Positions 5,354 through 21,876 are shown, numbered from the stretch's first letter. The stretch is DNA of 29,225 nucleotides from an uncultured Myxococcia bacterium (GCA_964617105.1 CAZTWC010000013.1:1-29225), one strand, 5' to 3'. A program made the numbers and translations. The notes: generated from the letters alone by a model not told the origin.

Positions 5354-5390
5354 ATCGTTTATCCTGCCTGATGTTCTACTGTACTGTGCA

Positions 5391-6500
5391 CTACTTACCT
5401 TTGCCCAAAAACTCTTTTATTGAATCGAATATCCCATCTTTACCTTTAATTTCCGAGGTGACAAGATTTTCATTGTCCGAAAGATGCTGACCCAACTCTT
5501 TGATAAACTGGCCACTGCCGTATTGGCTTTCCACCTGGCCATAACAGAACATGTTTACCTGAGCCAACATTTTTTCTTTGAGTAATTTGATACAAACACT
5601 GGAATCATCGGTTGACCAATTGTCGCCATCGGAAAAGTGAAAGGGGTAGATATTCCACTCAGAGGGATTGTAATCTTCGTCAATAATTTTATCACATAAT
5701 TTATAGGCACTGCTGATCATGGTTCCGCCGCTCTCCCGGGTGTGGAAAAAAGTTTCTCGATCCACCTCCCTGGCCACGGCGTCATGGATAATATAGCGGG
5801 ACTCGATCCCTTCGTAGTTGGCGGACAACCAGGTTTCTATCCAAAAAGATTCTATCCGCACAATTTCCTTTTGCTCTTCACCCATAGAGCCAGAAACATC
5901 CATCATATAAATAATAACCGCGCTGGAAGTGGGTATCCTGGTGATCCGGATTGCCCGGTAACGCTTGTCTTCCCGGTGAGGAATCACCATCGGCCGCTTG
6001 GGGTTATAGGTACCGCTGGCAATTTGGCGCTGCAAGGCTTGGCGGTAAGTTCGTTTGAAATGGCGCAGGGATTCGGGACCGGCTGTATATACACCGGTAT
6101 ATTTCAACTTTTCGGCGATGATATTCTTTTTCCCCTTGGGTTCGATGCGGGGCAGTTCCAACTCTTCACCCATAATTTCAGCCAACTCCTCCAGAGTGAC
6201 ATCCACTTCCAAAACATGTTCGCCCGGCTGATCGCCCGCCTCCTTACCATCGCCCGGTTGCACCTGTCCCGGCTGCAGGACCTGTCCCTCCTCACCGTCT
6301 CCCTGCCCGACTCCACCAGTATTTTTATGGCCAAAACGAAATTTGGGGATCTCAATCTGTGGCAGGGGAATACTGACTATATCTTTCCCCTTTTTGCCCA
6401 GCAGTTCCCCTTTGGTAATATACTTTTTAAGATTTTTTTTGATCCTGCCCTTAATGATTTCTTTGAAGCGGCTGTGATCTTGCTTAATTTTTTGTACCAT
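5391..6500 (-). CDS. YeaH/YhbH family protein (DUF444) with a C-terminal vWA-like domain
   Basis: The 369-aa product has ...[34 protein letters not shown]... and a MIDAS-like [15 protein letters not shown] typical of UPF0229/YeaH. It sits between prkA and spoVR, as in the conserved prkA-yhbH / yeaG-yeaH arrangement. Confidence 0.8.
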
Positions 6501-6510
6501 GGTTTTTTAT

Positions 6511-6656
6511 TGCATCCGCATTATTACCTATTAATTTAAGAATGTGGAGGCGCTCGGATAACTAGGCGCCGTTTCTAAAATCACAGCAGGCGTATGATAA
6601 TACGTCGAGGATAATTTTAGAAACGGCAACAACGTTAGCCGAGATGCATCCGCATT
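6511..6656. repeat. Structured intercistronic element between prkA and the yeaH-like gene. A 12-bp direct repeat TGCATCCGCATT (6511-6522 and 6645-6656) flanks a perfect 13-bp inverted repeat CCGTTTCTAAAAT / ATTTTAGAAACGG (6569-6581 / 6614-6626).
   Basis: All repeats were read directly from the sequence. One direct-repeat copy lies 4 nt after the prkA stop and the other 11 nt before the yeaH-like ATG. The inverted repeat would form a 13-bp stem with a 32-nt loop in the operon mRNA. No SD sequence precedes the yeaH-like start. Confidence 0.35.
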
Positions 6657-6659
6657 CTT

Positions 6660-8729
6660 CTACTTGTCTTCTTTTATGTCGCCTCGGGCAAATATACTCG
6701 CCACAAAATTCAGCACATCAGTAGCGCAAATTTCGCAATAGCCGTATCCATCGATCAACCGCTGTTTGACTACATCAATTTTCTCCTGGGTATCTTTGTC
6801 CACCACTGCACTCACCAAACTTTTCAACTTGATGGTGTCTTTCTGGTCTTCAAACAATTTCAACTCCAGCGCTTTTTGCAGCCTCTCGTTGGTGCGATAA
6901 TCAAATCCCTTACCATCCACAGCCAGGGCACCGATGTAGTTCATTATTTCGCGTCTGAAATCGTCTTTGCGTGATTCCGGAATCTCAATTTTTTCTTCAA
7001 TAGAACGCATCAGTCTCTCATCAGGCTCCTCGTATTGGCCGGTGTATTTGTTTTTAATCTTCTCTTTTTGAGTGTAGGCTTTTACATTGTCGATATAGTT
7101 GCTGCACAACTTGGTGATAGCGTTTTCATCGGCGGAAATTGCTTTTTGTACTTCATTTTTAATGATATCTTCATATTCCTGTTTCACCACATTTAGCAAA
7201 TCGCTATAATGCTTACGCATATCCTTGCTGGTGACCAAAGAGTGGTGTTTCATACCGGCTTCCAATTCATTTAAAACCAGGAAGGGGTTAATACAGCCTT
7301 CCGCTTTGTCGCTAACCAGGGAATTGGACATTTTATCCTGCACGTAACGAGGGCTTATCCCCTCCATTCCCTCGCGCTCCGTTTCTTTACGCAACTCTTT
7401 AATATTATCTTCTGTAAAGCCGCTTAAGGTTTTTCCATCGTAAAGTTTTAACTTCTGCAACAGGGTAAGGTTGTGTTTTTTGGGCTCTTCCAGCCTGGTG
7501 AGCACCGCCCACATGGCAGCCATCTCCACGGTATGGGGAGCAATGTGTTTTCCCTTGATTCTTTTGGTGTTAAAATCTCTGGAATAGATTTTGATCTCTT
7601 CTGAGAGTTTGGTGATATAGGGAATATCTACTTTGATGGTCCGATCACGTAAGGCTTCCATGAACTCATTGTTCTGAAGTTTTTTAAATTCCGGTTCATT
7701 GGTATGGCCGATGATCACTTCGTCAATATCGGTCTGAGCAAATTTTTTCGGTTTAATCTTATGCTCCTGGGTGGCCCCCAAAAGGTCGTATAGAAAAGCT
7801 ACATCCAATTTGAGGATTTCTATAAACTCAATAATACCCCGGTTGGCTATATTAAATTCACCATCGAAATTAAAGGCGCGGGGATCGGAGTCAGAACCAT
7901 ACTCGGCGATTTTGCGATAATTGATATCACCGGTCAATTCGGTGGAGTCCTGATTTTTCTCATCTTTAGGCTGAAAGGTGCCTATACCGCAGCGGTCTTT
8001 TTCGCTCAAGATCAACCGGCGCACGGTAATATGCTTGATCACTTTGCTCCAGTCGCCGTTGTACCGCTTGCTTAACTCGCTGAAAACATAGCGGCAGGCC
8101 GGGCACAACTCGCCGGTATTGGGAATAAGATACTCCTTGTTGCCCAATCCCAACTCGTTAAAAACCCTATCACGCCATTCCGCTGGAATCAGATGGATTG
8201 GGTCCTCGTGCATGGGGCAATTCATGATTTCTTCAACATCTTTACCATCCAAATTTTTACGCATAAATTTCCAGGTAAAAGTGTACATGGTCCCTTCCGG
8301 TATTTTACTGTAATCTTCCCGCCCTTTTTTCATCAATCTGGCGATAGTGCTCTTAGAACTTCCCACCGGGCCGTGGAGTAAAATTACCCTCTTTTCTGGT
8401 CCATATTGGTTGGCGGCTGATTTAAATACATTTACCAGTTTCATTAGAGAAATATCCAGGCCATAGATTGCATCGGCGCCACCAAATTTTTCATCTTTAA
8501 AAAAATTGTAACTAACAATCTTCTTTTTATTGTCCATATACTCGGTTTTACCATAGGAGGTGATCATATCGTATAGATGCTGAAATGCTGTCCTGGTAAC
8601 CCGGGGATTTTCTTTGACAATCTGCAGGTAATCCTCAAAATTTCCTACCCAGTTCAGCTCCTGGTACTGCCTGGTGTCCTGTAATTTGGCAATAACATCT
8701 AACATTGTTTTTTTTGCAGACCTAGCCAT
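6660..8729 (-). CDS. prkA: PrkA family serine protein kinase (AAA+ ATPase N-terminal domain plus C-terminal kinase domain)
   Basis: [56 protein letters not shown]... and the Walker [11 protein letters not shown] are typical of PrkA/YeaG. I moved the start from the track's 8807 to the ATG at 8729 (complement of 8727-8729). That ATG is preceded by AAAGGAGG 8 nt upstream. The longer ORF adds 26 non-conserved residues and has no RBS. Confidence 0.85.
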
Positions 8730-8823
8730 AAGTATTTTGCCTCCTTTAAATATAAAGATCTGGATATAATAATTTTCTTGACTTTTCCCGGAACACTCAC
8801 CCCACAAATAATTTCAAACTAAC

Positions 8824-9045
8824 TCACGTTACCGCTTCAACCCGCTCAACTTCCGGTATTTTCTCTTTTAGTCTTTGCTCTACTCCCATTTTCAGGGTCA
8901 TCGCAGCTCCCGGACAACCGGCACAGGCACCCTGAAGTTTTACAAAAACAACGTTATCCTTAACATCAACCAATTCGATATTTCCGCCATCAGCGATTAA
9001 AAAAGGTCTAATCTCGTCTAATACTTTTTCTACTTTTTCTTTCAT
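8824..9045 (-). CDS. NifU/Nfu-like Fe-S cluster assembly/carrier domain protein
   Basis: The 73-aa product has ...IRPFLIADGGNIELVDV...LQGACAGCPGAAMTLKMGVEQRLKEKIPEV..., the NifU C-terminal domain with a CxxC. The RBS is AGGAGG. Confidence 0.75.
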   Translation of the reverse strand: MKEKVEKVLDEIRPFLIADGGNIELVDVKDNVVFVKLQGACAGCPGAAMTLKMGVEQRLKEKIPEVERVEAVT

Positions 9046-9191: not shown

Positions 9192-10280
9192 ATGAATAAA
9201 AACCATCTTCCATTGGAACAGTACGAACCATTTTTCACCTCTTTTCAATCTGGGGTACTGGTCTGCCAGTTTAACGGCAAAATAGTGTATTTAAACCCGG
9301 CCGGGGAAGAGATACTTGAATACTCCAAAACAGAACTCCAATCCAGGAACCTTAACGATATTCTCAGCCCAGAGGAAAAAAAGAGGGTGGCCCGGATTAT
9401 GTCCAGAATAATTAACCGGGAAAAACTGAACTCCTTTGAATCCCTGGTAGTCAGCAAATCTGGCTTGAAGATGAGATTGCATTTTTCTATCAATACCCTG
9501 TTTTTAAACCAGCAGCATATTATCCTCTTGTTTGACGATATCACTCAGGCCTGGGTGCTAAAAGTAGAACGGGAAAAGACTAAATATTTTTTGGAAAATT
9601 TAGTCAACTCCTCGGTGGATGCTATTATTTCCGCCGACATGAATGGCTACATCACCTTTTTTAATCGGAGTGCTACCCGAATATATGGTTTTGCTGCAGA
9701 AGAGGTGGTGGATAAAATGCATGTTGCCCAACTATACTTCCCAGGGGAGGCGAAAAAAGTGATGCAAATGCTGCGCAGCAAAGAATTCGGCGGCGTGGGC
9801 AAACTCAATTCCATAGAACAATATGCCTTAAGTCGGGCAGGGGAAAAAATTCCAATTAGAATGACGGCGGCGATTATTTATAATCAAGAGCAAGAGATAG
9901 GAACCGTGGGGATTTTCAGCGATATGCGGGAAAAACGGAAAATGGAGGAAAAACTACAAACTGCCCAAAATAAATTGCTCATTCATGAAAGGCAGATTGC
10001 CATGGCCGAACTGGCGGGCGCCACTGCCCATGAATTAAACCAGCCGCTCACCGTGTTATTGGGCTCCTTTGAACTTTTAGAAATGGACTTAGCCCAGGAT
10101 GACCCACTTAGAAAAGAGTTAAAAGTGATCGAGCAGGAGTTGGAACGGATATCCAATGTAGTAAAAAAAATCGGCCAATTAACCCACTATGAAACTAAAT
10201 CTTACGTTGGTCAGACCACTATTGTGGACCTGGAAAAGTCATCTACTTCGGAGGACCAAGATATTATCGATAATCCTTAA
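9192..10280 (+). CDS. PAS-PAS-HisKA protein: a sensor histidine-kinase fragment with an H-box but no HATPase_c catalytic domain
   Basis: Two PAS-like segments are present (…VYLNPAGEEILEYSKTEL… and …SVDAIISADMNGYITFFNRSATRIYGF…). A coiled-coil/HisKA region follows: ERQIAMAELAGATAHELNQPLTVLLGSFELLEM. The ORF ends ~90 aa later with no N/G1/G2 boxes. Aspartate kinase starts 25 bp downstream, so there is no room for a lost ATPase domain. Confidence 0.7.
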   Translation: MNKNHLPLEQYEPFFTSFQSGVLVCQFNGKIVYLNPAGEEILEYSKTELQSRNLNDILSPEEKKRVARIMSRIINREKLNSFESLVVSKSGLKMRLHFSINTLFLNQQHIILLFDDITQAWVLKVEREKTKYFLENLVNSSVDAIISADMNGYITFFNRSATRIYGFAAEEVVDKMHVAQLYFPGEAKKVMQMLRSKEFGGVGKLNSIEQYALSRAGEKIPIRMTAAIIYNQEQEIGTVGIFSDMREKRKMEEKLQTAQNKLLIHERQIAMAELAGATAHELNQPLTVLLGSFELLEMDLAQDDPLRKELKVIEQELERISNVVKKIGQLTHYETKSYVGQTTIVDLEKSSTSEDQDIIDNP

Positions 10281-10304: not shown

Positions 10305-11567
10305 ATGGCTCCTAACCCTCCGGTGGTTGTACAAAAGTATGGTGGCACCTCTCTAGCCTCATCGTCAAAAATAAAGGCGGTGGCTCGCCGAATCATCGAC
10401 ACTGCCAAAACCGGCAAAAGGATGGTAGTTGTGGTTTCCGCCATGGGAGACACTACCGACAATCTCTTCAATCTGGCCCGGGAGATCACTCCTGAACCTG
10501 GCCCGCGCGAACTGGACATGCTGCTTTCGGTGGGGGAGAGGATATCCATGACTCTTTTATCCATGGCCCTACAGGAATTATCATTTCAGGCCATCTCTTT
10601 TACCGGCTCACAGAGTGGAATTATTACCAGCGGCAGCCACTCGCGAGCAAAAATAATCGAAGTGCGGCCCGTGAGGGTTATCCAGGAATTGGCCAGGGGA
10701 AAAATTGTCATTATCGCCGGTTACCAGGGTGTGAGCAAAGATAAAGAGATCACCACCCTGGGAAGAGGCGGTTCCGATACTACGGCCATAGCCATGGCTG
10801 CCGCCTTGAAAGCAGAATATTGTGAAATTTGCTCTGATATTGATGGAGTTTACAGTGCTGATCCAATGGTGGTAGAAAATGCCAGTAAATTAGACAACAT
10901 TTCCTACCAGGAAATGCAGGAGTTGGCTGTATCAGGGGCTAAAATACTGTGCGATACCGCAGTTGAGTTTGCCAAAAGTCATCTGATAACCGTTTATTCC
11001 ACCGCTTCTACCAGCAGATGCCCATCTGAAGGGACAAAAATTTCGGAACATAAAAATGGCAACGGCCGGGTAACTGGAGTAACTTATGAGTATGACCTGG
11101 CCTATTTCGTTATGCATTGTCAGGATACACAAGGAACTTTTTCCCTTTTACTGGCCTTTCTGGACCAGGAGGGGGTGGAGGTTAAACAGATAAATTTTCA
11201 GCAAAACAGCAACTGTGGTTCCATTGTCATCCCTTTAAAAAATTTGCCGGAATTCAACTCCTTGGAAAAACGTTTGCAAAATGAATTTGGTCCAGGACTA
11301 AAAATAATCAAAGGATTAGGAGCAGTATCTCTGGTGGGAATCGGCATCAACAACACCAACCAAAACCTGTTGCAAGCCTTCAAACTGATAGAACAAGGCG
11401 GGGGAGAGATTGTCTCTATCTCAACCTCATCCTTTAGGATCTCTTTTTTATTGAAATATATGCCCTTAGAGCCCCTGGTCAATACTCTACACAAAACTTT
11501 CTGCAGGGTGGGATATTCCAAGCGGTGCATTTCCAATGTTGCTGATGGCTCTGTTTCTCAAAAATAG
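10305..11567 (+). CDS. lysC: Aspartate kinase (aspartokinase) with C-terminal ACT domains
   Basis: [52 protein letters not shown]... is the canonical aspartokinase N-terminus. The product is 420 aa. Confidence 0.85.
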
Positions 11568-12207
11568 CCAGGCCGCCAGTGGTTAATTTTATTTGGTTTT
11601 TTTGGGCAAAGGAGGCAAACTCACCGGTCAGGTGGGGGGAAAAACGGGCAATTCCATTACTGGTCACCAACAGAACGGTTTGACCTGGATATTCCATTTC
11701 CACCTTTTTGGCAAAACGGTGCCAATTATTAACAATATCAGCAGGATTTACTTTCCAGCCACCAGGGACCGTTGCCTTCCGGTTCCAGGCGTTAATAACT
11801 TCCCGGCCAATTGCCATAACCTGCTGATTGGATAGTTGCTCCAGATTCTGGCCCATCTCTACCGCTCTTAAACCACCAAGACGCTGTAACACCTGATCTT
11901 CGGTTTGGTTTTCGTCTGGACCATAGTCGATCTCCAAAAAACTCTCTTCTGGTTCAATGGAGAGGTGGGTTTGCATCTGGTTAACTGCCAGTCTGGCAGT
12001 GTTGGTTGTACGCTTAAGCGGAGCGGCGAAAACTTTAGCGGGTAATAGATTGTTTTCTATAAGATAGTGGCCAATAGCCCTACTCCGTTTTTCCTCCACC
12101 AAATCCAGATCGGTTCGACGGCCAATCCGGGTGGGAGTTTGGTCCCGGGTAAAAGTATTGCCGTGACGAGCAATAATCAGTCTGGTTAGTGGGTTGGTCA
12201 CAAACAT
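11479..12207 (-). CDS. Histidine phosphatase family protein (phosphoglycerate-mutase-like, RHG motif)
   Basis: [14 protein letters not shown]...GRRTDLDL... carries the catalytic RHG. It starts 12 bp downstream of the kdsB stop on the same strand and is preceded by a purine-rich AGAGAGAG. Its last ~29 codons overlap the 3' end of lysC convergently. Confidence 0.7.
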
Positions 12208-12219
12208 AAACTCTCTCTT

Positions 12220-13035
12220 TTAAAATTTACCATAATCACTAATCAACTTTTCGGCCCGTTGAACATCATCAGGAGAATCCACACCACTCATACCCGGCCA
12301 GTTTCCATAATCCACTTTAACCATTCGAATATCAATACCATTATCTATAAACCGCAATTGCTCCAAACCCTCCAGTTTTTCATAAAACCCCTGGGGAAGA
12401 TGGGCAATTTTGTCTAAAATGTCATAGCGATAACCGTAGAGTCCAATATGGCGATAAATCGGCGACAAACCGGTTTCTGAGTTCCTCTCCCGTATACTTT
12501 TCTCCTGGCGGATAGCGGGAATAATATTCTTAGAAAACCAGATGGCTTTATTTTCCTGGTTCACAATAACGGTGGTGCCGGAAAAGGGGGTGTGCTTTTT
12601 GAACTGCCGCAAAATATCCAACTCTTTCCAGGACAATTGGACACAGGGTGTGACTACCTCCAGCGAGTTATCTTGGAGATAACAATCAATGATCGTCTCC
12701 ACAAATCCGGGTGGACAAAGTGGGTTATCGCCCTGCAGATTCACCACAAAATCGGGCCTCTCCTGAATGGCCTGGGCAGCCTCGCGCACCCTTTCTGTGC
12801 CGGTGCGGCAATCGGTTGAGGTGATAAGCACCTCCATATTGTGCTGGCGACAAAATTGAGCGATCCGTTGATCATCGGTGGCCACCACCACCCTTACATT
12901 TTCAAACTTTTTGGCCGCTCTGATGGCAATGTCCCACACCAGTGCCACCATTTCGCGCCCAGCAATTTTTACCAAAGGCTTGCCGGGAAAACGGGTGGAG
13001 CCGTAACGGGCGGGAATAACAATAAGGGTTTTCAT
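12220..13035 (-). CDS. kdsB: 3-deoxy-manno-octulosonate cytidylyltransferase (CMP-KDO synthetase)
   Basis: MKTLIVIPARYGSTRFPGKPLVKIAGREMV... is the classic KdsB N-terminus. The product is 271 aa. Confidence 0.85.
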   Translation of the reverse strand: MKTLIVIPARYGSTRFPGKPLVKIAGREMVALVWDIAIRAAKKFENVRVVVATDDQRIAQFCRQHNMEVLITSTDCRTGTERVREAAQAIQERPDFVVNLQGDNPLCPPGFVETIIDCYLQDNSLEVVTPCVQLSWKELDILRQFKKHTPFSGTTVIVNQENKAIWFSKNIIPAIRQEKSIRERNSETGLSPIYRHIGLYGYRYDILDKIAHLPQGFYEKLEGLEQLRFIDNGIDIRMVKVDYGNWPGMSGVDSPDDVQRAEKLISDYGKF

Positions 13036-13358: not shown

Positions 13359-14759
13359 ATGGCTTTTCGAATCCTCATTGCTGATGATGAAGAAGATTCA
13401 AGGGAAACTTTTTCCCAGTTTTTTACCAAGAGTGGTTACGATGTAGAAACAGCGGACAACGGTTTTGATGTGATCTTGCGAGTGAAACAACAAGACTACC
13501 ACCTGCTGCTTCTGGATAATATTATGCCTGGCAGCAATGGGGTGGAGGTGTTAAAATATTGTCAAAAACACAAACCAGACTTGCCAATTGTTCTATACAG
13601 CGCCCATGCCAAAATGGAAGATGTGGTCTCCATAATGGAGAAGGGTGCCCAAAAATTTTTCCCTAAAGAAACGGCCCTGGCCACCATGGAAAAACATATT
13701 GCCGAAATATTGACCAATAAATACCAACAAATGAAACCGGAGTCGGAAAACGATTCCCAAACCCCTGCCACCGGCGACTGCCACTATCTTGATATGATTG
13801 GCGATGACCCCAAGATGAAAAAGATTTTCGGTATTATCGAACGAGTTGCCAAGACCGAAAGCACGATATTGGTTACCGGGGCAAGCGGTACCGGCAAAGA
13901 GTTGGTAGCCCGGGCAATTCATACCAGAAGCAAACGAGGTAAAGGACCCTTGGTACCGGTAAATTGCGCTGCCATCCCCGATACGCTTTTAGAAAGCGAA
14001 CTGTTCGGCTATGAAAAAGGGGCTTTTTCCGGTGCAGTAAAATCCAAACCTGGACGTTTTAAAATGGCGGACAAAGGTACCATCTTTCTGGACGAGATAG
14101 GAGATATGCCGCCTTACCTACAGGTAAAATTGCTGCGGGTGCTGCAGGACAAATCATATATTCCCCTGGGAGGCATCCAGGAGATGAGCGCCAACTTCAG
14201 AGTGGTTTCCGCCACCAATAAAGATTTGGAAAAGGAGATCGCCGAGGGAAACTTCAGGGAAGATCTATATTTCCGTCTCAACGTAATTCCAATTAGTATT
14301 CCACCTCTGCGGGAACGACGGGGAGACATCCCTTTGCTGATAAACAGTTTTTTAAACAAAATAAATAATAACGAAGACTTATCAGTGGAAGGGGTAGAAA
14401 AAGAGGTTATGGAGAAATTGTTCCGTTACGATTGGCCGGGCAATGTTAGAGAACTGGAAAACATGGTGGAAAGAATGATGATTTTTCGCGGGGAGGGAAA
14501 TATTCTCCTGGAGGATGTTCCGCAAAAGATCTTGGGCAACCAATCTGGCAAAGATGAGACCCCATCAATGGAAGTGGGTGAAGATGGCATAGATTTCAAC
14601 CAGGTAATAAGTGAGATGGAAAAAGACCTGATCTTACAGGCCTTGGAACAAACTGGATGGAATAAGAACAAAGCAGCCAGCCTGCTCAATTTGAATCGAA
14701 CGACTCTGGTGGAAAAAATAAAAAAGAAAAAATTAAAGCCCTCTTCTGAGGATAATTGA
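13359..14759 (+). CDS. Sigma54-dependent response regulator, NtrC family (REC + AAA+ sigma54-interaction domain + C-terminal Fis-type HTH)
   Basis: The REC domain has the acceptor Asp in HLLLLDNIMPG. Walker A is VTGASGTGKE. The GAFTGA-type loop reads GAFSGA. ...FRLNVIPISIPPLRERRGDIPLL... is typical of the family. The C-terminal HTH is KNKAASLLNLNRTTLVEKIKK. Confidence 0.85.
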   Translation: MAFRILIADDEEDSRETFSQFFTKSGYDVETADNGFDVILRVKQQDYHLLLLDNIMPGSNGVEVLKYCQKHKPDLPIVLYSAHAKMEDVVSIMEKGAQKFFPKETALATMEKHIAEILTNKYQQMKPESENDSQTPATGDCHYLDMIGDDPKMKKIFGIIERVAKTESTILVTGASGTGKELVARAIHTRSKRGKGPLVPVNCAAIPDTLLESELFGYEKGAFSGAVKSKPGRFKMADKGTIFLDEIGDMPPYLQVKLLRVLQDKSYIPLGGIQEMSANFRVVSATNKDLEKEIAEGNFREDLYFRLNVIPISIPPLRERRGDIPLLINSFLNKINNNEDLSVEGVEKEVMEKLFRYDWPGNVRELENMVERMMIFRGEGNILLEDVPQKILGNQSGKDETPSMEVGEDGIDFNQVISEMEKDLILQALEQTGWNKNKAASLLNLNRTTLVEKIKKKKLKPSSEDN

Positions 14760-14909: not shown

Positions 14910-15200
14910 ATGGCTGATGCATTAGGTATGATTGAAACTAGAGGTTTTGTCGGTATGGTTGAGGCATCTGACGCAATGGTAAAAGCAGCTCGAGTGGAGT
15001 TGGTAGGCTATGAAAAAATTGGCGGCGGTTTTGTAACCGCATTGGTCAGAGGTGATGTAGCGGCGGTCAAAGCGGCCACCGAGGCTGGTTCCAGAGCGGC
15101 TGAACGAGTTGGTGAACTGGTTAGCGTCCACGTTATTCCTCGTCCCCATGCTAATATAGATCTCGTGTTACCCCTGGGCAGAAAAAACCAGGTATCTTAA
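14910..15200 (+). CDS. BMC-H shell protein (hexamer-forming, PduA/EutM-like, Pfam00936 domain)
   Basis: [60 protein letters not shown]... is a canonical BMC-domain sequence. The RBS is GGAGG. Confidence 0.9.
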
Positions 15201-15253
15201 TGATATCCTGAATTATTTCTGGCGCAAAGGGCAAGGGGAGGCAAAAGAGAAGG

Positions 15254-15559
15254 ATGTTAATCGGAAAAGTTATCGGTACTGTGGTGTCAACCCGCAAGGA
15301 AGAAACTTTGAAGGGGTTGAAGTTTTTGCTGCTTAGACCAACGGATGAAGCGGGAAAACTAAAAGCAAAAGATGATCCGGTGGTAGCCGCAGATGCAGTA
15401 GGCGCCGGAGTTGGAGAATTGGTGCTTTATGCCACTGGCAGTGCATCCAGGCAGACTCATCTCACCGATGAACGGCCGGTTGATGCAGTAATTATGGCCA
15501 TTGTAGATATGATTGATAAAGACGGCAACATTTCCTATAATAAGGCGGAGTCTGAGTAG
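15254..15559 (+). CDS. BMC-P vertex protein (pentamer, EutN/PduN/CcmL family)
   Basis: MLIGKVIGTVVSTRKEETLKGLKFLLLRP...VAADAVGAGVGELVLYATGSASRQ is typical of EutN/CcmL. The product is 101 aa. Confidence 0.85.
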   Translation: MLIGKVIGTVVSTRKEETLKGLKFLLLRPTDEAGKLKAKDDPVVAADAVGAGVGELVLYATGSASRQTHLTDERPVDAVIMAIVDMIDKDGNISYNKAESE

Positions 15560-15702
15560 TTTTAATTGTTTGTGGTTCTGCCTTAATTTTCCTTACCAAA
15601 CTTAGTCTTCTTCTCTATATTTCTGAAAATTCCCTTATTTTTTATCTGAAACTTTAACTTGTCTATTATATCTTTAACCAATTTATTACATGGAAACACA
15701 AA

Positions 15703-16005
15703 ATGGATGCAAAATTTTTTGAAGAGTTGAGCCTGGAACAGTGGAGCCAATGCCGCAATCAGTTGATTACCTTATCGCAGGACCAAAAAGCCCTGGCTGA
15801 TTTTATTGCCGAGATGAGCCAAAAAATCCCTTTGGCCGGTGAAATATGGAAAGCCATCCGGTTAAATACGGCTCAAAACCAAAAGCAGGAAGGCGAAGAG
15901 AAAGAAAATAATCCCAACCAGGACAAATTGATCGAAATGAGCGGAGATTTAAACTTTTTTTGTTTCCTTTACTCGCTGGGAAAACAGGCGAAAATTTGGG
16001 AATAA
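15703..16005 (+). CDS. Hypothetical 100-aa protein inside the BMC operon. It is predicted helical with an acidic/polar middle and a hydrophobic C-terminus, and shows no recognisable family.
   Basis: The ORF is in operon orientation. It follows a 143-bp CT-rich spacer and ends 20 bp before the aldehyde dehydrogenase ATG. Its RBS is weak (GGAAA). I could not match it to PduL, PduV, EutJ or any other known BMC accessory. Confidence 0.4.
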   Translation: MDAKFFEELSLEQWSQCRNQLITLSQDQKALADFIAEMSQKIPLAGEIWKAIRLNTAQNQKQEGEEKENNPNQDKLIEMSGDLNFFCFLYSLGKQAKIWE

Positions 16006-16025
16006 AATTATGGGAGTATAAAAAA

Positions 16026-17495
16026 ATGCACCTGGACGAAAAAAGGATAGACGCCATTGTGGAAAAAGTGGTGAGTAAATTGGCCGGTGAACAGATGGCT
16101 AAACCATTAGGGATGAAACCAGTTTCCAGCCATGCAAGCGCTAACGCCTCTCCGTCTCTAGTAACCGGAAAATATTTCTCCGGTCCTGGTCAGGTGGGGG
16201 TATTTCCCGATATGGATTCTGCCGGTGAAGCAGCCGGCAGAGCCCAGGAACAATTGGTAAAACTTCCTTTGCAGATGCGAATCAGAGTAATTGAGGCTAT
16301 GCGGGAGGTATCCAGGCAACACAACCGTGAACTAGCCGAGATGACGGTAAAAGAGACCGGGATAGGTAGAGTGGCGGACAAAATAAATAAAAATCTGCTG
16401 GCCATAAATAAAACTCCTGGGGTGGAAGACTTGAAACCCATCGCCTGGTCTGGTGATGACGGCTTGACCCTGGTGGAGCGGGCGCCTTACGGGGTGATTG
16501 GCTCTATAACTCCCTGCACCAATGCGACTGAAACTATTATATGCAATGCCATTGGCATGATAGCCGGTGGAAATGCTGTCATATTTAATGTTCACCCTGC
16601 AGCCAAGAATATTTCCAATTACTATATCTCTCTGTTAAACAAAGCCATTGTGGCGGTGGGCGGACCGCCAAACCTGCTATGCTGCATTAAAGAGCCCACT
16701 ATCCAAAGCGCCCAGGCCCTGATGAGCCATCCTGCCATCAGGTTATTGGTGGTCACCGGCGGTCCAGCAGTGGTAAAAGTGGCCATGCAATCAGAAAAAA
16801 AGGTGATCGCCGCCGGACCGGGTAATCCTCCAGCGGTAGTGGATGAAACTGCTCACATTGAAAGGGCGGCCCAAAATATTATCAAAGGCGCCTCCCTGGA
16901 TAACAATATTGTCTGCGTGGTAGAAAAAGAGTTCATTGCGGTCAGCGATATTGCCGATATGCTAAAACAGTATATGCTGCGGTACGGTGCATACGAAGTT
17001 ACCGGGCGACAACTGGCCCGACTGGAAAAAGTGGTGTTAAAAGGAGATGGGGTTAACAAAGATTGGGTTGGGAAAAATGCCAACCGGATTTTAGATCAAA
17101 TTGGGATATCTGCTTCCGATGACCTACGCTTGATATTCTGCGAAACCTCAGAAGACCATCCCTTTGTGCAGCACGAATTGCTGATGCCGGTGGTGCCTCT
17201 TATTCGAGTATCTCATGTGGACGAAGGGATTGCCATGGCCAAAAGGGTGGAGCACAATTTCAGGCATACCGCCTGTATCCACTCCACCAATATCGAAAAA
17301 CTACACAAAATGGCGGTGGTTATGGACACGTCTATTTTTGTTAAGAATGCACCCTCTTACGCCGGACTGGCTCTGGGCGGCGAGGGATACACCTCTTTTA
17401 CTATCGCCAGTCCCACCGGCGAAGGGCTTACCTCTGCCAAAGACTTTACCAGAGTGAGACGCTGCGTGTTAAAGGACTACTTCCGGATCGTTTAA
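16026..17495 (+). CDS. CoA-acylating aldehyde dehydrogenase (PduP/EutE-like) with an N-terminal BMC encapsulation peptide and linker
   Basis: The start was moved to ATG 16026, which has a GGGAG RBS ~10 nt upstream. The track ORF from 15960 adds 22 residues that overlap the upstream gene. The N-terminus MHLDEKRIDAIVEKVVSKLAGEQ is an amphipathic helix. It is followed by a ~45-aa G/S/P-rich linker. The core contains ITPCTNATETIICNAIGMIAGGNAVIFNVHP and the catalytic-Cys block LDNNIVCVVEKE, as in EutE/AdhE-type acylating ALDH. Confidence 0.85.
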   Translation: MHLDEKRIDAIVEKVVSKLAGEQMAKPLGMKPVSSHASANASPSLVTGKYFSGPGQVGVFPDMDSAGEAAGRAQEQLVKLPLQMRIRVIEAMREVSRQHNRELAEMTVKETGIGRVADKINKNLLAINKTPGVEDLKPIAWSGDDGLTLVERAPYGVIGSITPCTNATETIICNAIGMIAGGNAVIFNVHPAAKNISNYYISLLNKAIVAVGGPPNLLCCIKEPTIQSAQALMSHPAIRLLVVTGGPAVVKVAMQSEKKVIAAGPGNPPAVVDETAHIERAAQNIIKGASLDNNIVCVVEKEFIAVSDIADMLKQYMLRYGAYEVTGRQLARLEKVVLKGDGVNKDWVGKNANRILDQIGISASDDLRLIFCETSEDHPFVQHELLMPVVPLIRVSHVDEGIAMAKRVEHNFRHTACIHSTNIEKLHKMAVVMDTSIFVKNAPSYAGLALGGEGYTSFTIASPTGEGLTSAKDFTRVRRCVLKDYFRIV

Positions 17496-17500
17496 TTATC

Positions 17501-18838
17501 ATGCAAAAAAATCGCCTGATTAAGTTGGTTGAGGAGGCTGGCGTTGTTGGAGCCGGCGGGGCAGGTTTTCCCTCTCATCTAAAGATATCATCTAAAGTTG
17601 ATACGGTAATCGCTAATGGGGCCGAGTGTGAACCGCTCCTATATACTGACCAGACCGCCATGATTGAACAAACGCGCGAATTAGTGGCTGGATTGGAGAT
17701 GGTGGTTAATATCACTGGCGCCCAAAAAGGGATCATTGCGCTTAAAAGCGTCTATCAAGACTGCATCAAAAAATTAAAGGCCGCGATAAAGGGAAAAAAT
17801 GGGATTGAACTATTTTTGTTAGAAGATTTTTATCCTTGCGGAGATGAGCATGTTCTCACCTTTGAAGTTACCGGCAGGCTGGTTCCTCAGCGGGGAATCC
17901 CTCTGGAAACCGGGGTGCTGGTGCACAACGTCACTACCCTGATCAATATTTATCATGCCAGCCATGGTCAAAAGGTGGTGGATCGAGCCCTTACCGTTAC
18001 CGGAGAAGTAAAAAATCGCGGCGTGATTAAAGTGCCTGTAGGGACATCAATAAAAGAGGTGCTGGCTCAATGCGGCGGCCCTACAGTTCATCCCTTTAGA
18101 GTGATTTGCGGCGGACCGATGATGGGAAATGAGGAGGAAGATCTGCTTCAATCCGTAGATAAACTCACCGCCGGCCTGATAGTTCTGCCGGCTAACCATC
18201 TTTATTTTACGTTGAGAGGTGCGGAGAGTAAAAAGGCCCAGGGTTACCTTAGCCGGGCCACCGCCTGTATTCAGTGCAGCGACTGCACTTCTCTTTGCCC
18301 CCGTTATTTACTCGGGCATCAAATTCAACCTCATATCTTGATGCGCAATATCACCTTCTCTGGCCCAGATCCCCAAAAGGGCTCTCAGGCTTTGCTATGC
18401 TGCCAGTGTGGTCTTTGCTCTCTCTACGCCTGCTCCCAGGGCCATTCCCCCCGCACCCTGTGTATCCAACTAAAAGAGATGGGCGCCAGTCAAAATATCG
18501 AGCCGCCCGTAAAGATGGTGCCGCCCGCAGTGCGAGAGGGACGTAACTACAAAAAGGTCCCCAAACTAAACCTGGTCAGGGCTCTAAAATTAGAGAAATA
18601 TTACCATCCGTTAAAAACCATTATTCCCAATGAAAATTGGACCAGGGTTCGGATAAAAATGCTGCAGCATTTTGGCCAACCAGCCAAATCAATAGTAACT
18701 AAAGGAGAGATGGTAAAGAAAGGGCAAACCATTGCCCAAATGGCTTCAAAACAATTAGGTGCCAACATCCATGCCTCTATTTCCGGCCAGGTAGTAAAAG
18801 CGAACCGGAATGAAGTGGTGATAAAAAAGGTTAAATGA
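17501..18838 (+). CDS. PduS-like RnfC/NuoF-family Fe-S flavoprotein (BMC-associated oxidoreductase)
   Basis: The N-terminus ...VVGAGGAGFPSHLKI...VIANGAECEPLLYTDQ matches the RnfC/PduS nucleotide-binding region. There are two 4Fe-4S motifs: CIQCSDCTSLCP and CCQCGLCSLYAC. The start is 6 bp after the ALDH stop. Confidence 0.8.
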   Translation: MQKNRLIKLVEEAGVVGAGGAGFPSHLKISSKVDTVIANGAECEPLLYTDQTAMIEQTRELVAGLEMVVNITGAQKGIIALKSVYQDCIKKLKAAIKGKNGIELFLLEDFYPCGDEHVLTFEVTGRLVPQRGIPLETGVLVHNVTTLINIYHASHGQKVVDRALTVTGEVKNRGVIKVPVGTSIKEVLAQCGGPTVHPFRVICGGPMMGNEEEDLLQSVDKLTAGLIVLPANHLYFTLRGAESKKAQGYLSRATACIQCSDCTSLCPRYLLGHQIQPHILMRNITFSGPDPQKGSQALLCCQCGLCSLYACSQGHSPRTLCIQLKEMGASQNIEPPVKMVPPAVREGRNYKKVPKLNLVRALKLEKYYHPLKTIIPNENWTRVRIKMLQHFGQPAKSIVTKGEMVKKGQTIAQMASKQLGANIHASISGQVVKANRNEVVIKKVK

Positions 18839-18902
18839 CAGTGTTCACAGGAAAATTAACTGCCATATGAAATTTGGACAAGCAAAGAACTGAGGAAAAA
18901 AG

Positions 18903-19457
18903 ATGTCTTATAAAGATCCCGCCATCGGCATGATAGAAACTTTGAGTATAGCAAAAGGGATGGTGGCCTGTGACACTATGGCTAAAAAAGCCCCTGTCAG
19001 CGTACTCCAGGCCCACAGCATCTGCCCGGGAAAATTTTTAATTATCATCAATGGCGAAGTTTCTGAGGTAGAAGAGTCTATGATGGTGGGAGAAAATAGT
19101 GCGGACCACTACCTGGTAGACAAACTCTTTTTACCCCATGTCGACCCCCAGGTAGGGCCGGCTATTACCCGCACCAACCATATAGAAACTATAAAATCGG
19201 TAGGAATTATAGAAACCTTTACCGCTGCTTCAATAATTTATGCGGCTGATGCTGCCGCCAAGTGCACATCCATAAAACTGATAGATATCAGAATAGCCAA
19301 TGGACTGGGGGGGAAATCCTACCTGACCTTAACTGGTGAGTTGTATGAGGTTGAGGCCTCCATTAAGGCTGGAGTTGAAAAGATCGACACCGGACTTTTG
19401 GTGCAAACCGAGATTATTCCCGCACCCCACCCAGATTTTGTGGCACATCTGTTCTAG
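18903..19457 (+). CDS. BMC-T shell protein (tandem BMC domains, PduT-like) with the conserved pore cysteine
   Basis: The 184-aa product has two BMC domains: AIGMIETLSIAKGMVACDTMAKK...SICPGKFLIIINGE and VGIIETFTAASIIYAADAAAKCT.... It closely parallels Salmonella PduT, including the Cys in the sICPGKF loop that ligates a 4Fe-4S cluster at the trimer centre in PduT. The RBS is GAGGA. Confidence 0.85.
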   Translation: MSYKDPAIGMIETLSIAKGMVACDTMAKKAPVSVLQAHSICPGKFLIIINGEVSEVEESMMVGENSADHYLVDKLFLPHVDPQVGPAITRTNHIETIKSVGIIETFTAASIIYAADAAAKCTSIKLIDIRIANGLGGKSYLTLTGELYEVEASIKAGVEKIDTGLLVQTEIIPAPHPDFVAHLF

Positions 19458-19502: not shown

Positions 19503-20180
19503 TTATCCCCGCAGAGGGGTGCGGCATTTCATACAGAAATTGCTCTTTTCGGTGAGCATCACCTTGTTTTGACAGGATGGACACTGGACGGTGAGTAATC
19601 CCTTCATGGTTTCAATCGCTTCCAAGGCAATCTGGCTGGCCGAAGGGTCTTGATCCACGTAGGCCATCAACTTTGTCAACCTCTCTAAGATCGGCACAAA
19701 TTTAAACTTGGTGCCAATCTCTAAATAGGCTCTCTCCTTGGCAGGCAAACTCTCAGCCTTGGCTGATTCGCCCTTACGGTCATGAATCAATTTTTTGATT
19801 TTGGATAGCAGGACATTGGGATTAAACTCATCGCTCTTAACAATATAATCGTCAGCACCCAAATTTTCGATTAAATAGACAATGTCGTTTTTGGAACGCA
19901 CTGCTGTGTACATAATAACCGGTAAATTTTTAAAAGTGGAATGAGGTCCCTTGAGTAATTTCAAAAGTCCTCTACCATCTATACTCCCGGGCATCTCTAC
20001 ATCCAGGATAAGACAATCGAATACAAACCCGCGCTTTTTGCCGTCTAAGAGTTTCATGTAGGCGCCGTGACCGTTCTCAGCCTCTTCTACCTTAAAATCC
20101 TCTTTTATCAGAAAAGTAGATAAAACTTTTCTAACCAGGGGCTCATCGTCCACTACCAGGATGCTATATTGGTGTACCAT
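19503..20180 (-). CDS. Response regulator receiver (REC) protein with a C-terminal double-CxxC zinc ribbon. It has no classical DNA-binding output domain.
   Basis: The REC domain has ILVVDDEPLVRK... and the acceptor Asp in CLILDVEMPG. The C-terminus reads ...TVQCPSCQNKVMLTEKSNFCMKCRTPLRG. The RBS is GAGGGAG. It is convergent with the BMC operon. Confidence 0.75.
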   Translation of the reverse strand: MVHQYSILVVDDEPLVRKVLSTFLIKEDFKVEEAENGHGAYMKLLDGKKRGFVFDCLILDVEMPGSIDGRGLLKLLKGPHSTFKNLPVIMYTAVRSKNDIVYLIENLGADDYIVKSDEFNPNVLLSKIKKLIHDRKGESAKAESLPAKERAYLEIGTKFKFVPILERLTKLMAYVDQDPSASQIALEAIETMKGLLTVQCPSCQNKVMLTEKSNFCMKCRTPLRG

Positions 20181-20544: not shown

Positions 20545-21876
20545 ATGAGACAATGTCCATTATGTCAAGAAGAGTTGGAGACAGATGCTAATTTCTGTCC
20601 TGTTTGTGGGGTTGATTTTGAGCAACTGAAAGTTAAAAAGCGCTCCCTTAGTATTGAACCGCAACAGCTCTCCAACGATCTGGACGAGATGCTGGCTTTA
20701 CAGGAACAAGGTGTTTGCTCCAAGGAATTATATATAAAACTGGCAACTTTTTTTCTGAATCAAGAGCGCCTGAATGAGGCCAACGAACAGATAAGCGCTT
20801 TTTTACAAGAAAGTGGCAATGACGTGGAAGCGCTGATGTTAAAAGCGCGAATTATCAAGAAAACTGATGACAAAGAACAATTGAAAGAGGTCTATGCAAC
20901 TGTGGCAGAACAGGGCTATTTCGACCAGGAAGAAACCTTTATCGCCATCCGGGAATTAATAGATATTTATCAATCGGAAAATGATCTGGATAATCTAATT
21001 AAATACCTGGAACTTTTAATTTACACCGCTCTGCACGATGACCCCCTGGTCCGTAAAAAGGTGGGCACTGATTTTTCCTTTATTGACAAACATGAGCACC
21101 TATTACACGAGATGCCCGGGTATATGGAAAATTATTCCATCCTAAGAGGCCTTATCGGTTTGATTAACCAGGATCTGAATGAACTTTACCGGATGCTGGG
21201 CATGAGTTATTTTAAACAAGAAAAATTCTTTCAGGCGGCTAACGCTTTTTACGGTATTGCCGATATAGATCCTTCCCATGCCTACTTTGCCCTGACATTG
21301 ATAAAAATAAAAAAATATAGCAGGGCAGCTGAACTGTTTGATCAAATAGAACCAGATACAATAGCCTTCAATCAAGAGGAGGAGGCGATATTGCAGGAGG
21401 CATTTATAGCCTTTTTAAAACAAAAAAAAACTAGTTTTCAACGTCGTTGTGAAATTGCTCAAAAAGCCCTGGCAATTTTGCCGGAAAGAGAAGAAATCAA
21501 ACAGGCAATAAGTGCTCTCTACAAGCGTCAAGGGTTGAAGTTGCTCTCTAATCAGGAGGAAACCCGGGGGCTGGAAGCGCTGGAGGAGGCTAATAAATAT
21601 TTTCAAGACCAGCAAATTGAAGAAACCTTACAAAAAGTTTACTCCAACCGCAGTAGAAGGGAAAAGATTATTGCCATTAAACGCTATTCGCTAAGTATTC
21701 TTTCCATGCTATTTTTCTCCCTGGTGATGCTGGTTATATTTTTAGCAATTTTTGGCGATATTGGCCAAATCTGGCAAGAGGTCAATACCCTTTTGAAAGA
21801 AAGTTTCGCTGGAGGCAACAGTGCAGAAATCCGACATACACCTATAAACATACAATTCTGGCGAATGCCTGGCTAG
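20545..21876 (+). CDS. Membrane-anchored protein with an N-terminal double-CxxC zinc ribbon, a TPR-like alpha-helical repeat region and a C-terminal TM helix
   Basis: The N-terminus is MRQCPLCQEELETDANFCPVCG. The repeat region is helical and rich in L/A/E/K/Q, with ...AANAFYGIAD.., ...YFALTLIKIKKY.. pairs. The C-terminus LSILSMLFFSLVMLVIFLAIFG is a predicted TM segment. Confidence 0.6.
   Translation: MRQCPLCQEELETDANFCPVCGVDFEQLKVKKRSLSIEPQQLSNDLDEMLALQEQGVCSKELYIKLATFFLNQERLNEANEQISAFLQESGNDVEALMLKARIIKKTDDKEQLKEVYATVAEQGYFDQEETFIAIRELIDIYQSENDLDNLIKYLELLIYTALHDDPLVRKKVGTDFSFIDKHEHLLHEMPGYMENYSILRGLIGLINQDLNELYRMLGMSYFKQEKFFQAANAFYGIADIDPSHAYFALTLIKIKKYSRAAELFDQIEPDTIAFNQEEEAILQEAFIAFLKQKKTSFQRRCEIAQKALAILPEREEIKQAISALYKRQGLKLLSNQEETRGLEALEEANKYFQDQQIEETLQKVYSNRSRREKIIAIKRYSLSILSMLFFSLVMLVIFLAIFGDIGQIWQEVNTLLKESFAGGNSAEIRHTPINIQFWRMPG

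Follow-up and report, generated by a model that had tools for sequence, protein, structure and literature searches.

A compact bacterial microcompartment operon from an uncultured Myxococcia bacterium, with an HO-like core, a predicted NAD+-recycling pair and no adjacent signature enzyme

A bacterial microcompartment (BMC) operon was analysed on contig CAZTWC010000013.1 (positions 1–29225) of assembly GCA_964617105.1, which derives from an uncultured Myxococcia bacterium. The window, i.e. the whole stretch of DNA that was analysed, is the complete contig of 29,225 nt, with a GC content of ~43 %. Six open reading frames (ORFs), all co-directional, occupy positions 14910–19457 of the plus strand, where an earlier note on this DNA had placed them; in operon order the intergenic gaps are 53, 143, 20, 5 and 64 nt. 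The note had identified the products as one hexameric shell protein (BMC-H), one pentameric vertex protein (BMC-P), an unknown protein of 100 aa, an acylating aldehyde dehydrogenase (AldDh), a PduS-like protein and a PduT-like shell protein, and the Pfam and NCBIfam results agreed with all six. The features of the operon are as follows.

14910–15200, plus strand: BMC-H hexamer shell protein resembling the Haliangium ochraceum (HO) type (PF00936, E 1.8e-30)
15254–15559, plus strand: BMC-P pentamer vertex protein (PF03319, E 6.2e-29)
15703–16005, plus strand: ORF3, an orphan of 100 aa, all-helical in a model, with no Pfam or NCBIfam family
16026–17495, plus strand: AldDh, predicted CoA-acylating aldehyde dehydrogenase of the PduP/EutE class (PF00171; NCBIfam PRK15398, 673.7 bits against a cut-off of 403)
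16026–16196, plus strand: predicted encapsulation peptide and linker of AldDh (alignment of N-termini)
17501–18838, plus strand: predicted metabolosome NADH dehydrogenase (MNdh), PduS-like (PF01512, PF10531, PF13534 and PF13375)
18903–19457, plus strand: predicted BMC-T^SE, a PduT-like tandem-domain trimer shell protein (two BMC domains, E 1.2e-40)

The five recognisable genes were all full length, gave full-length alignments and retained their catalytic and cofactor residues. BMC-H shared 84 % identity over 92 aa with H. ochraceum HO-5815 (PDB 5DJB/5V74), which was its top natural match in the PDB, and possessed the standard KAA and PRPH motifs, whilst the best PDB match of BMC-P was the H. 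ochraceum BMC-P of 5V74 (~55 % identity). This is the single BMC-P on the contig, and the Pfam scan found BMC domains in BMC-H and the tandem BMC-T but in no third gene. The locus was near-invariant in at least 10 assemblies, and a sister contig, L093 (82 % identical), has kept the synteny of the NtrC-family regulator gene, BMC-H and BMC-P. Comparison with L093 revealed 33 synonymous and four non-synonymous changes in BMC-H, and 40 synonymous and 10 non-synonymous changes in BMC-P. This synonymous excess indicates that both genes are under purifying selection and are functional, and it rules out the pseudogenized shell genes that the earlier note had allowed for.

AldDh most likely starts at the ATG at 16026, because this codon is preceded by a GGGAG Shine–Dalgarno sequence and brings the N-terminus into register with those of ~45 homologues; a TTG start at 15960, which overlaps ORF3, was rejected as an ORF-caller artefact. 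The best PDB matches of the enzyme were BMC dehydrogenases, namely PduP of Rhodopseudomonas palustris (5JFL; 475 bits, end-to-end alignment) and 4C3S of Clostridium phytofermentans, and Cys297, within NNIVCVVEKE, aligned to the catalytic cysteine of PduP. Judged by these alignments, it is an intact CoA-acylating aldehyde dehydrogenase. From the corrected start, residues 1–19 read MHLDEKRIDAIVEKVVSKL and are followed by a low-complexity linker at residues ~20–57. The N-terminal helix was in register with an M-x-L-D-E-x-[KR]-I-x-x-I-V-E-[KR]-V motif in the ~45 homologues, each of which had a variable Pro/Ala/Ser/Gly linker between this motif and the GVFxD core. The N-terminal encapsulation peptide that had been proposed for AldDh is thus retained as a prediction, on the strength of a helix and linker conserved among the homologues once the start is corrected. 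The AldDh of HO loci always carries such a peptide in the catalogue of BMC types (Sutter, 2021). A hydrophobic-moment screen for helices resembling encapsulation peptides returned no candidates, its threshold being too strict.

The PduS-like protein consists, in order, of an FMN/NADH domain (PF01512, residues 10–152), an SLBB domain (PF10531, residues 165–209), a domain with two [4Fe–4S] motifs (PF13534, residues 255–314) and a C-terminal RnfC_N domain (PF13375, residues 377–438). It is circularly permuted relative to RnfC (PDB 7ZC6_C), residues 4–315 aligning to RnfC 121–419 and residues 383–432 to RnfC 33–81. Its two cysteine motifs, C256-x2-C-x2-C-x3-C266 (C256/259/262/266) and C300-x2-C-x2-C-x4-C311 (C300/303/306/311), both aligned to cluster motifs of RnfC. 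The tandem-domain shell protein is encoded 64 nt further on and has C41 within ICPGKF, a match to the CP(G/S)K pore motif; its best PDB matches were of the PduT type (3NWG, 3PAC and 3N79; 156–126 bits), with H. ochraceum T1 (5DII/5DIH) scoring lower (100 bits). Across 63 related loci, a cysteine occupied the pore position in 13 of the 14 T proteins encoded after a PduS, the 14th having a cysteine one residue earlier, compared with only one of the 49 T proteins without PduS, in which serine, aspartate or alanine mostly stands at this position. The sole exception to the rule is the BMC-T at L056:9359-9877, which has ICPGKY in a fetched locus that does not include PduS.

PduS homologues have been re-examined across more than 7,000 BMC loci and renamed MNdh (Sutter et al., 2024, PNAS, PMC11626177). 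In that study MNdh was found almost always to adjoin a PduT-type shell protein with the CP(G/S)K motif, named BMC-T^SE; 361 loci had the pair without an alcohol dehydrogenase, and activity assays, electron paramagnetic resonance and voltammetry supported a path from NADH through FMN and three 4Fe–4S clusters to the shell exterior, regenerating lumenal NAD+. The pair in the window shares with that system the four permuted domains, the two 4Fe–4S motifs, the adjacent CP(G/S)K BMC-T, the co-occurring AldDh and a locus without an alcohol dehydrogenase, without a difference in any sequence feature. The activity that has been demonstrated is that of a Clostridium botulinum GRM1 homologue, not of the MNdh predicted here, which is only ~40 % identical to the PduS proteins of related loci. 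On these shared features the PduS/PduT pair is assigned as MNdh/BMC-T^SE, the predicted NAD+ recycler that takes the place of an alcohol dehydrogenase. The earlier note had counted the alcohol dehydrogenase as a required and missing part; its absence is no puzzle, because a published alternative recycler sits in the operon itself.

Partner enzymes were sought with Pfam in every ORF of at least 70 aa and in the two partial ORFs at the ends of the contig. No PduL, Pta, iron-containing alcohol dehydrogenase, glycyl-radical enzyme, aldolase, EutBC or PduCDE was found on the 29-kb contig. The reported lack of a signature enzyme, of PduL/Pta and of an alcohol dehydrogenase within 5 kb of the operon was therefore borne out and extends to the whole contig, and the scan brought to light no adjacent gene of this kind, a discovery that the earlier note had allowed for. 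The contig could not be lengthened, as other assemblies of this organism either ended at the same position or were shorter. Phosphotransacylase is absent from the contig and from most of the related loci. The operon has PF00936 and PF03319 genes clustered with a PF00171 AldDh and has neither a core alcohol dehydrogenase nor a core phosphotransacylase, which is how a metabolosome with incomplete core (MIC) was defined (Axen, 2014); the H. ochraceum locus was filed under that name, and the label fits the present operon.

To place the operon among its relatives, 80 genome loci were fetched with AldDh. The order H-P-AldDh-(PduS)-T-(P-P) recurred among them in Myxococcota, Chloroflexota, Eisenbacteria, Auribacterota, candidate division B38 and others. 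The H-P-AldDh-T order was common to 60 or more related loci, MNdh and ORF3 being additions here. For the 16 genome loci that bear PduS, a Pfam census of the flanks covered 103 ORFs. The commonest family was the class II aldolase (PF00596), found directly after the module in eight of the 16 loci, followed by extra BMC-domain proteins (seven by Pfam), DeoC (four), SIS/RpiR regulators (three) and RpiB (two); neither phosphotransacylase nor the iron-containing alcohol dehydrogenase was among the recurrent families. A Tdp-like gene (~205 aa) lay just upstream of BMC-H in 12 of these 16 relatives and is missing here. The fuller arrangement is exemplified by L016, from an Auribacterota metagenome-assembled genome (MAG), with the order Tdp-H-P-AldDh-MNdh-T^SE-aldolase. 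A metagenome scan seeded with three BMC-linked aldolases listed at least 80 loci, and several of its contigs had the order H-P-AldDh-PduS-PduT-(P-P)-aldolase. Because of the flank census and these contigs, the window resembles the central part of a longer conserved module, with Tdp missing at one end and P-P-aldolase at the other. In two MAG loci of 33–34 % GC (L024:13933-15216 and L039:13942-15222), a class II aldolase–DeoC fusion of 427 aa follows the BMC module and may be a fused double signature enzyme.

The closest AldDhs were 57–65 % identical and came from metagenomes and from MAGs labelled Myxococcales, Myxococcota or Deltaproteobacteria. In a neighbour-joining tree AldDh was sister to eight Myxococcales-labelled H-P-AldDh-T loci (97/100 bootstraps), none of which has PduS. 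No aldolase, phosphotransacylase or alcohol dehydrogenase was found within ~4.5–10 kb of these eight loci and their metagenomic kin, and their conserved context is poor in enzymes (FtsY, DUF4332, unknown proteins, signal peptidase, LysM, TatA and a sigma-54 activator). The 13 closest relatives all share the short form of the locus, with no aldehyde-forming enzyme adjoining. Atribacterota loci, which the earlier note had cited for combining an AldDh with an RnfC/PduS-like protein, are thus not the closest analogue; the closest relatives are HO-type loci from Myxococcota.

In the HO type I of the catalogue, the main locus encodes shell proteins and an AldDh with an N-terminal encapsulation peptide, whilst in 24 of 30 genomes a satellite locus provides two more BMC-P and a PF00596 aldolase, the other six being without a satellite aldolase (Sutter, 2021). 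The present operon shares with this type (Sutter, 2021; MIC in Axen, 2014) the H-P-AldDh-T order, the encapsulation peptide (predicted here) and a main locus without phosphotransacylase, alcohol dehydrogenase or signature enzyme. It differs in its T protein, which is a cysteine-bearing PduT-type BMC-T^SE preceded by MNdh rather than the structural T1 of HO with its serine pore; in the absence from the contig of any BMC-Tdp, of which HO has two (main locus and satellite); in having one BMC-P on the contig against a triplet in HO; and in the orphan ORF3 between BMC-P and AldDh. Its GC content (~43 %) also lies below that of the Myxococcales-labelled loci (57–75 %). PduS and PduT were seen in few HO genomes, the HO AldDh is closest to that of types SPU5/SPU7, and EutBC/EutL modules occur in four HO loci (Sutter, 2021).

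Other catalogued types resemble the operon in part. MIC7, from Latescibacteria and Eisenbacteria (Sutter, 2021), likewise has an AldDh with an N-terminal encapsulation peptide as the sole enzyme besides shell proteins, and some members have a PduS homologue adjoining BMC-Ts with a cysteine pore; it differs in its two BMC-H, its BMC-P triplet and an AldDh nearest to that of SPU3, against one H and one P here, and the Eisenbacteria-type loci L077 and L082 (HHPASTPP) fell in another part of the AldDh tree. Aldolase-based metabolosomes (PVM, MUF2/3, MIC4 and loci like L016) share the core module and the NAD+-recycling pair and, judging from the gene neighbours of the relatives, plausibly the conversion by a sugar-phosphate aldolase to an aldehyde and then to acyl-CoA, but no aldolase, phosphotransacylase or acetate kinase is encoded on the present contig. 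The PDU metabolosome has the B12-dependent diol dehydratase PduCDE, PduL and PduQ alongside PduS/PduT, whereas PduCDE, PduL and PduQ were not found on the present contig. AldDh loci without an obvious signature enzyme are already listed under ACI, FRAG1-7, HO, MIC2-7 and MUF2-3 (Sutter, 2021). The novelty implied by the earlier note was therefore not upheld, given these entries and the conservation of H-P-AldDh-(PduS)-T across the 80 genome loci.

The operon is likely to be the main locus of an HO-like metabolosome, in which an HO-like core is accompanied by MNdh/BMC-T^SE and the aldehyde-forming enzyme is encoded elsewhere. By analogy with characterized systems, the encapsulation peptide would take AldDh into the shell lumen, where the enzyme would convert an aldehyde to acyl-CoA and reduce NAD+ to NADH. 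MNdh would dock on the lumenal face of BMC-T^SE and reoxidize the NADH at FMN, and the electrons would leave the shell through a [4Fe–4S] cluster held by three Cys41 residues. The likeliest source of the aldehyde, to go by the relatives, would be a BMC-associated class II aldolase (PF00596), probably with two additional BMC-P genes alongside, the arrangement seen in satellites of HO type I. This aldolase would cleave a sugar phosphate or deoxysugar phosphate to dihydroxyacetone phosphate and an aldehyde such as lactaldehyde. It is the best guess for the signature enzyme because half of the PduS-bearing loci of the census have a class II aldolase after the module.

Several observations weigh against this interpretation. 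The contig has no aldolase, no second or third BMC-P and no BMC-Tdp, and none of the loci listed by the aldolase-seeded metagenome scan (at least 80) came from samples carrying this organism; the AldDh-seeded scan covered GTDB representative genomes, among which this organism is not included. The proposal in the earlier note that the partner enzymes sit at a satellite locus thus agrees with HO type I as the catalogue describes it, but no satellite from this organism was recovered in the metagenome scan. One candidate, L153 (GC 0.44), with three BMC-P and an aldolase, was not assigned to this organism because it comes from an unrelated sample and has its own P1-like gene. Two loci with the same H-P-AldDh-PduS-T layout, L064 and L065, have flanks without an aldolase. 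The AldDh trees were built without any catalogue-labelled HO dehydrogenase, and the function of MNdh rests on one published study of the C. botulinum homologue, not of this protein. Finally, the T protein grouped with PduS-linked T proteins and was split from the T proteins of the AldDh sister clade in 100/100 bootstraps, its nearest leaf being a PduS-linked T in 91/100.

Because T groups with the PduS-linked T proteins and not with those of the AldDh sisters, the locus is a mosaic and not a textbook HO locus. It is possible that the MNdh/T^SE pair was swapped in for a structural T; it is equally a possibility that the pair is ancestral and that the sister clade lost PduS, followed by a change of the pore cysteine to serine. 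Little agreement between the phylogeny of MNdh and BMC type has been reported, and transfer of the module has been suggested (Sutter et al., 2024).

The other explanations differ mainly in where the aldehyde comes from. A satellite might encode a signature enzyme other than the class II aldolase, either a DeoC/RpiB pair as in SPU-like loci or an EutBC module with EutL, and we regard this as rather unlikely: DeoC (4/16) and RpiB (2/16) do occur beside PduS-bearing relatives, two loci have the aldolase–DeoC fusion, and the EutBC/EutL modules and the SPU-like AldDh of HO loci (Sutter, 2021) point the same way, but the class II aldolase is twice as frequent beside the module and is the usual satellite enzyme of HO type I (24/30), and no gene on the contig suggests ethanolamine or deoxyribose metabolism. 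It is improbable that the operon suffices by itself, as a two-enzyme organelle that takes up free aldehyde from the cytosol or the environment, turns it into acyl-CoA by oxidation and exports the electrons released. The usual rationale for encapsulation is that an aldehyde produced within the shell is confined there, most of the related loci with larger gene sets have an adjacent aldolase, and absence from one contig tells little about a genome; this idea, which has been raised for MIC and MUF loci (Axen, 2014), would nevertheless account for the lack of an aldehyde-forming enzyme both on the 29-kb contig and beside the 13 closest relatives, for L064 and L065 and for the six HO type I genomes without a satellite aldolase (Sutter, 2021). 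There is only a slight chance that the organelle is complete and minimal in the strict sense, with AldDh and the NADH dehydrogenase as its only enzymes, ORF3 perhaps as scaffold or cargo, free aldehyde as its scavenged substrate and no encapsulated aldehyde-generating enzyme anywhere in the genome; if this were true, it would pass reducing equivalents through its shell to a cytoplasmic or respiratory acceptor.

PduS of Salmonella and Citrobacter was first assigned, on biochemical grounds, as a cobalamin reductase, and EutBC modules are present in a few HO genomes (Sutter, 2021), so that the PduS-like protein might serve a B12-dependent signature enzyme of PDU or EUT type encoded elsewhere. This is very improbable, given the published argument that MNdh is widespread in BMC types independent of B12 and that cobalamin would hardly fit into its fold (Sutter et al., 2024), that no PduCDE, EutBC, adenosyltransferase or reactivase gene is on the contig, and that the link between PduS and the pore cysteine fits electron export. 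Hardly any weight can be given to the view that the operon is a decaying remnant which has lost Tdp, the extra BMC-P and the aldolase and can no longer form a functional organelle. It is true that, beside fuller relatives (Tdp-H-P-AldDh-MNdh-T-P-P-aldolase), the module here is without its two ends, and an orphan ORF lies in the unusually long spacer between BMC-P and AldDh, but the five genes are full length with their residues intact, purifying selection on BMC-H and BMC-P is strong, and the locus is near-invariant among assemblies and has the same short form in its 13 closest relatives.

The HO shell is a widely used model for engineered shells; to our knowledge, no native substrate has yet been established for HO-type microcompartments. 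The class to which the locus belongs is itself known, having been catalogued in 2021 and its cofactor recycling explained in 2024, and the picture of such organelles is unchanged. What the operon offers is a compact case of an HO-like H/P/AldDh core sharing its operon with a predicted MNdh/BMC-T^SE electron-export module, and one in which the serine in the pore of the structural T is naturally replaced by a cysteine that would bind a cluster. According to the accounts cited in Sutter (2021) and Sutter et al. (2024), the same change from serine to cysteine has been engineered into H. ochraceum T1 for the binding of a 4Fe–4S cluster. The novelty that remains lies in the host lineage, in the orphan ORF3 and in the small chance of a complete two-enzyme organelle.

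ORF3 is probably a real, lineage-specific gene. Its codon-usage score was 0.242, compared with a mean of 0.188 (SD 0.047) for the real genes of the contig and a maximum of 0.165 for out-of-frame decoys, and the identical protein was called on 12 contigs from several assemblies. The only match, in a word-indexed search of 5.8 billion proteins and a phmmer search of 1.84 billion representatives, was a 99 %-identical copy from the same species. A single-sequence AlphaFold2 model was all-alpha, with a pLDDT of 71; neither a fold match for this model nor a Pfam or NCBIfam family was found, and assignment of ORF3 to a known family was rejected, as no family, sequence or fold match lay outside its own species. 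A clear Shine–Dalgarno sequence was not found upstream of ORF3.

Two promoter candidates and a regulator gene bear on the expression of the operon.

13359–14759, plus strand: NtrC-family response regulator (REC, sigma-54 AAA+ and HTH_8 domains), adjoining BMC-H, an adjacency kept in L093
14830–14859, plus strand: sigma-70-like promoter candidate TTGACT-18-TAAATT (9/12 consensus matches), ~50 nt upstream of BMC-H, weak
15513–15541, plus strand: sigma-70-like promoter candidate TTGATA-17-TATAAT (11/12 matches), inside the 3' end of BMC-P, strong

The candidate at 15513–15541 may be an internal promoter, from which ORF3, AldDh, MNdh and T would be transcribed apart from H and P. The 143-nt spacer between BMC-P and ORF3 has a GC content of 26 %. 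No riboswitch or other known RNA was found in the long spacer between BMC-P and AldDh, Rfam at the gathering threshold detecting only the tRNA-His on the contig. Sigma-54 control of the operon by the adjacent NtrC-family regulator was rejected as unsupported: neither in the window nor in relatives did the 300 nt upstream of BMC-H contain a −24/−12 element, scores were no better than background, and a scan of the window gave 28 matches against 35.6 expected. A link between this regulator and the operon is thus possible but unsupported, because no sigma-54 promoter was found upstream of BMC-H. Unrelated sigma-54 activators are encoded 3–4 kb downstream of the closest H-P-AldDh-T loci (L001, L175 and L176).

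Further observations were made on the related loci. Conserved proteins of unknown function bracket the closest H-P-AldDh-T loci, with one of ~445–461 aa upstream of BMC-H and one of ~275–279 aa after BMC-T (L001:7791-9176 and 12027-12866; L175:2706-4043; L176:6265-7644 and 10667-11494); they could be unrecognized cargo, and no homologues of them were found in the window. The BMC-linked class II aldolases (L016:14230-15003, L015:10539-11306, L067:7384-8157, L077 and L082) have in common a C-terminal extension with a conserved C-x2-C-G-x-C motif, beyond which are a variable linker and a short helix resembling an encapsulation peptide.

The genes upstream of the operon encode the NtrC-type regulator, kdsB, a histidine phosphatase, an aspartokinase, a PAS/HisKA protein, NifU and PrkA-DUF444-SpoVR, and those downstream a REC/zinc-ribbon protein, a zinc-ribbon/TPR protein, a PMT_2 glycosyltransferase, an RRM protein, a DUF4476 protein, a REC protein and a histidine kinase. 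The flanking features that were delimited are listed below.

455–1918: bacterial sugar transferase, adjoining the CotH-kinase-family gene
1922–3727, minus strand: CotH-kinase-family protein of 601 aa, adjoining the sugar transferase
3848–8807, minus strand: PrkA / DUF444 (YeaH-like) / SpoVR-like operon of three genes
8824–9045: small NifU-domain gene, next after the PrkA/DUF444/SpoVR-like operon
9192–10280, plus strand: protein of 362 aa with two PAS domains and HisKA, HATPase_c not detected
10305–11567, plus strand: aspartokinase, convergent with the histidine phosphatase
11479–12207, minus strand: histidine phosphatase, with an 89-nt 3' overlap with the aspartokinase
19503–20180, minus strand: REC-domain protein with a C-terminal CxxC...CxxC zinc ribbon, divergent from the next gene
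20545–21876, plus strand: TPR-like protein with an N-terminal zinc ribbon and a C-terminal membrane segment
28354–28429, plus strand: tRNA-His (GTG)
after the tRNA-His to 29223, plus strand: Peptidase_MA_2 open frame that runs off the contig end

The two zinc-ribbon genes (19503–20180 and 20545–21876) were not conserved beside related BMC loci. The best non-self match of the aspartokinase among 5.8 billion proteins was 53 % identical, and its matches came from mixed phyla and did not place the host within Myxococcota; this indicates that the host lineage is poorly sampled and deep-branching. Because the aspartokinase of this lineage is at most 53 % identical to anything in that collection, the locus extends the host range of the predicted MNdh module. 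The C-terminal tail of the aspartokinase may be lineage-specific or over-called, since homologues cover only ~94 % of the protein. A partial family 2 glycosyltransferase lies at the 5' end of the contig, and at the other end the public gene call for L094 starts the Peptidase_MA_2 ORF inside the tRNA-His.

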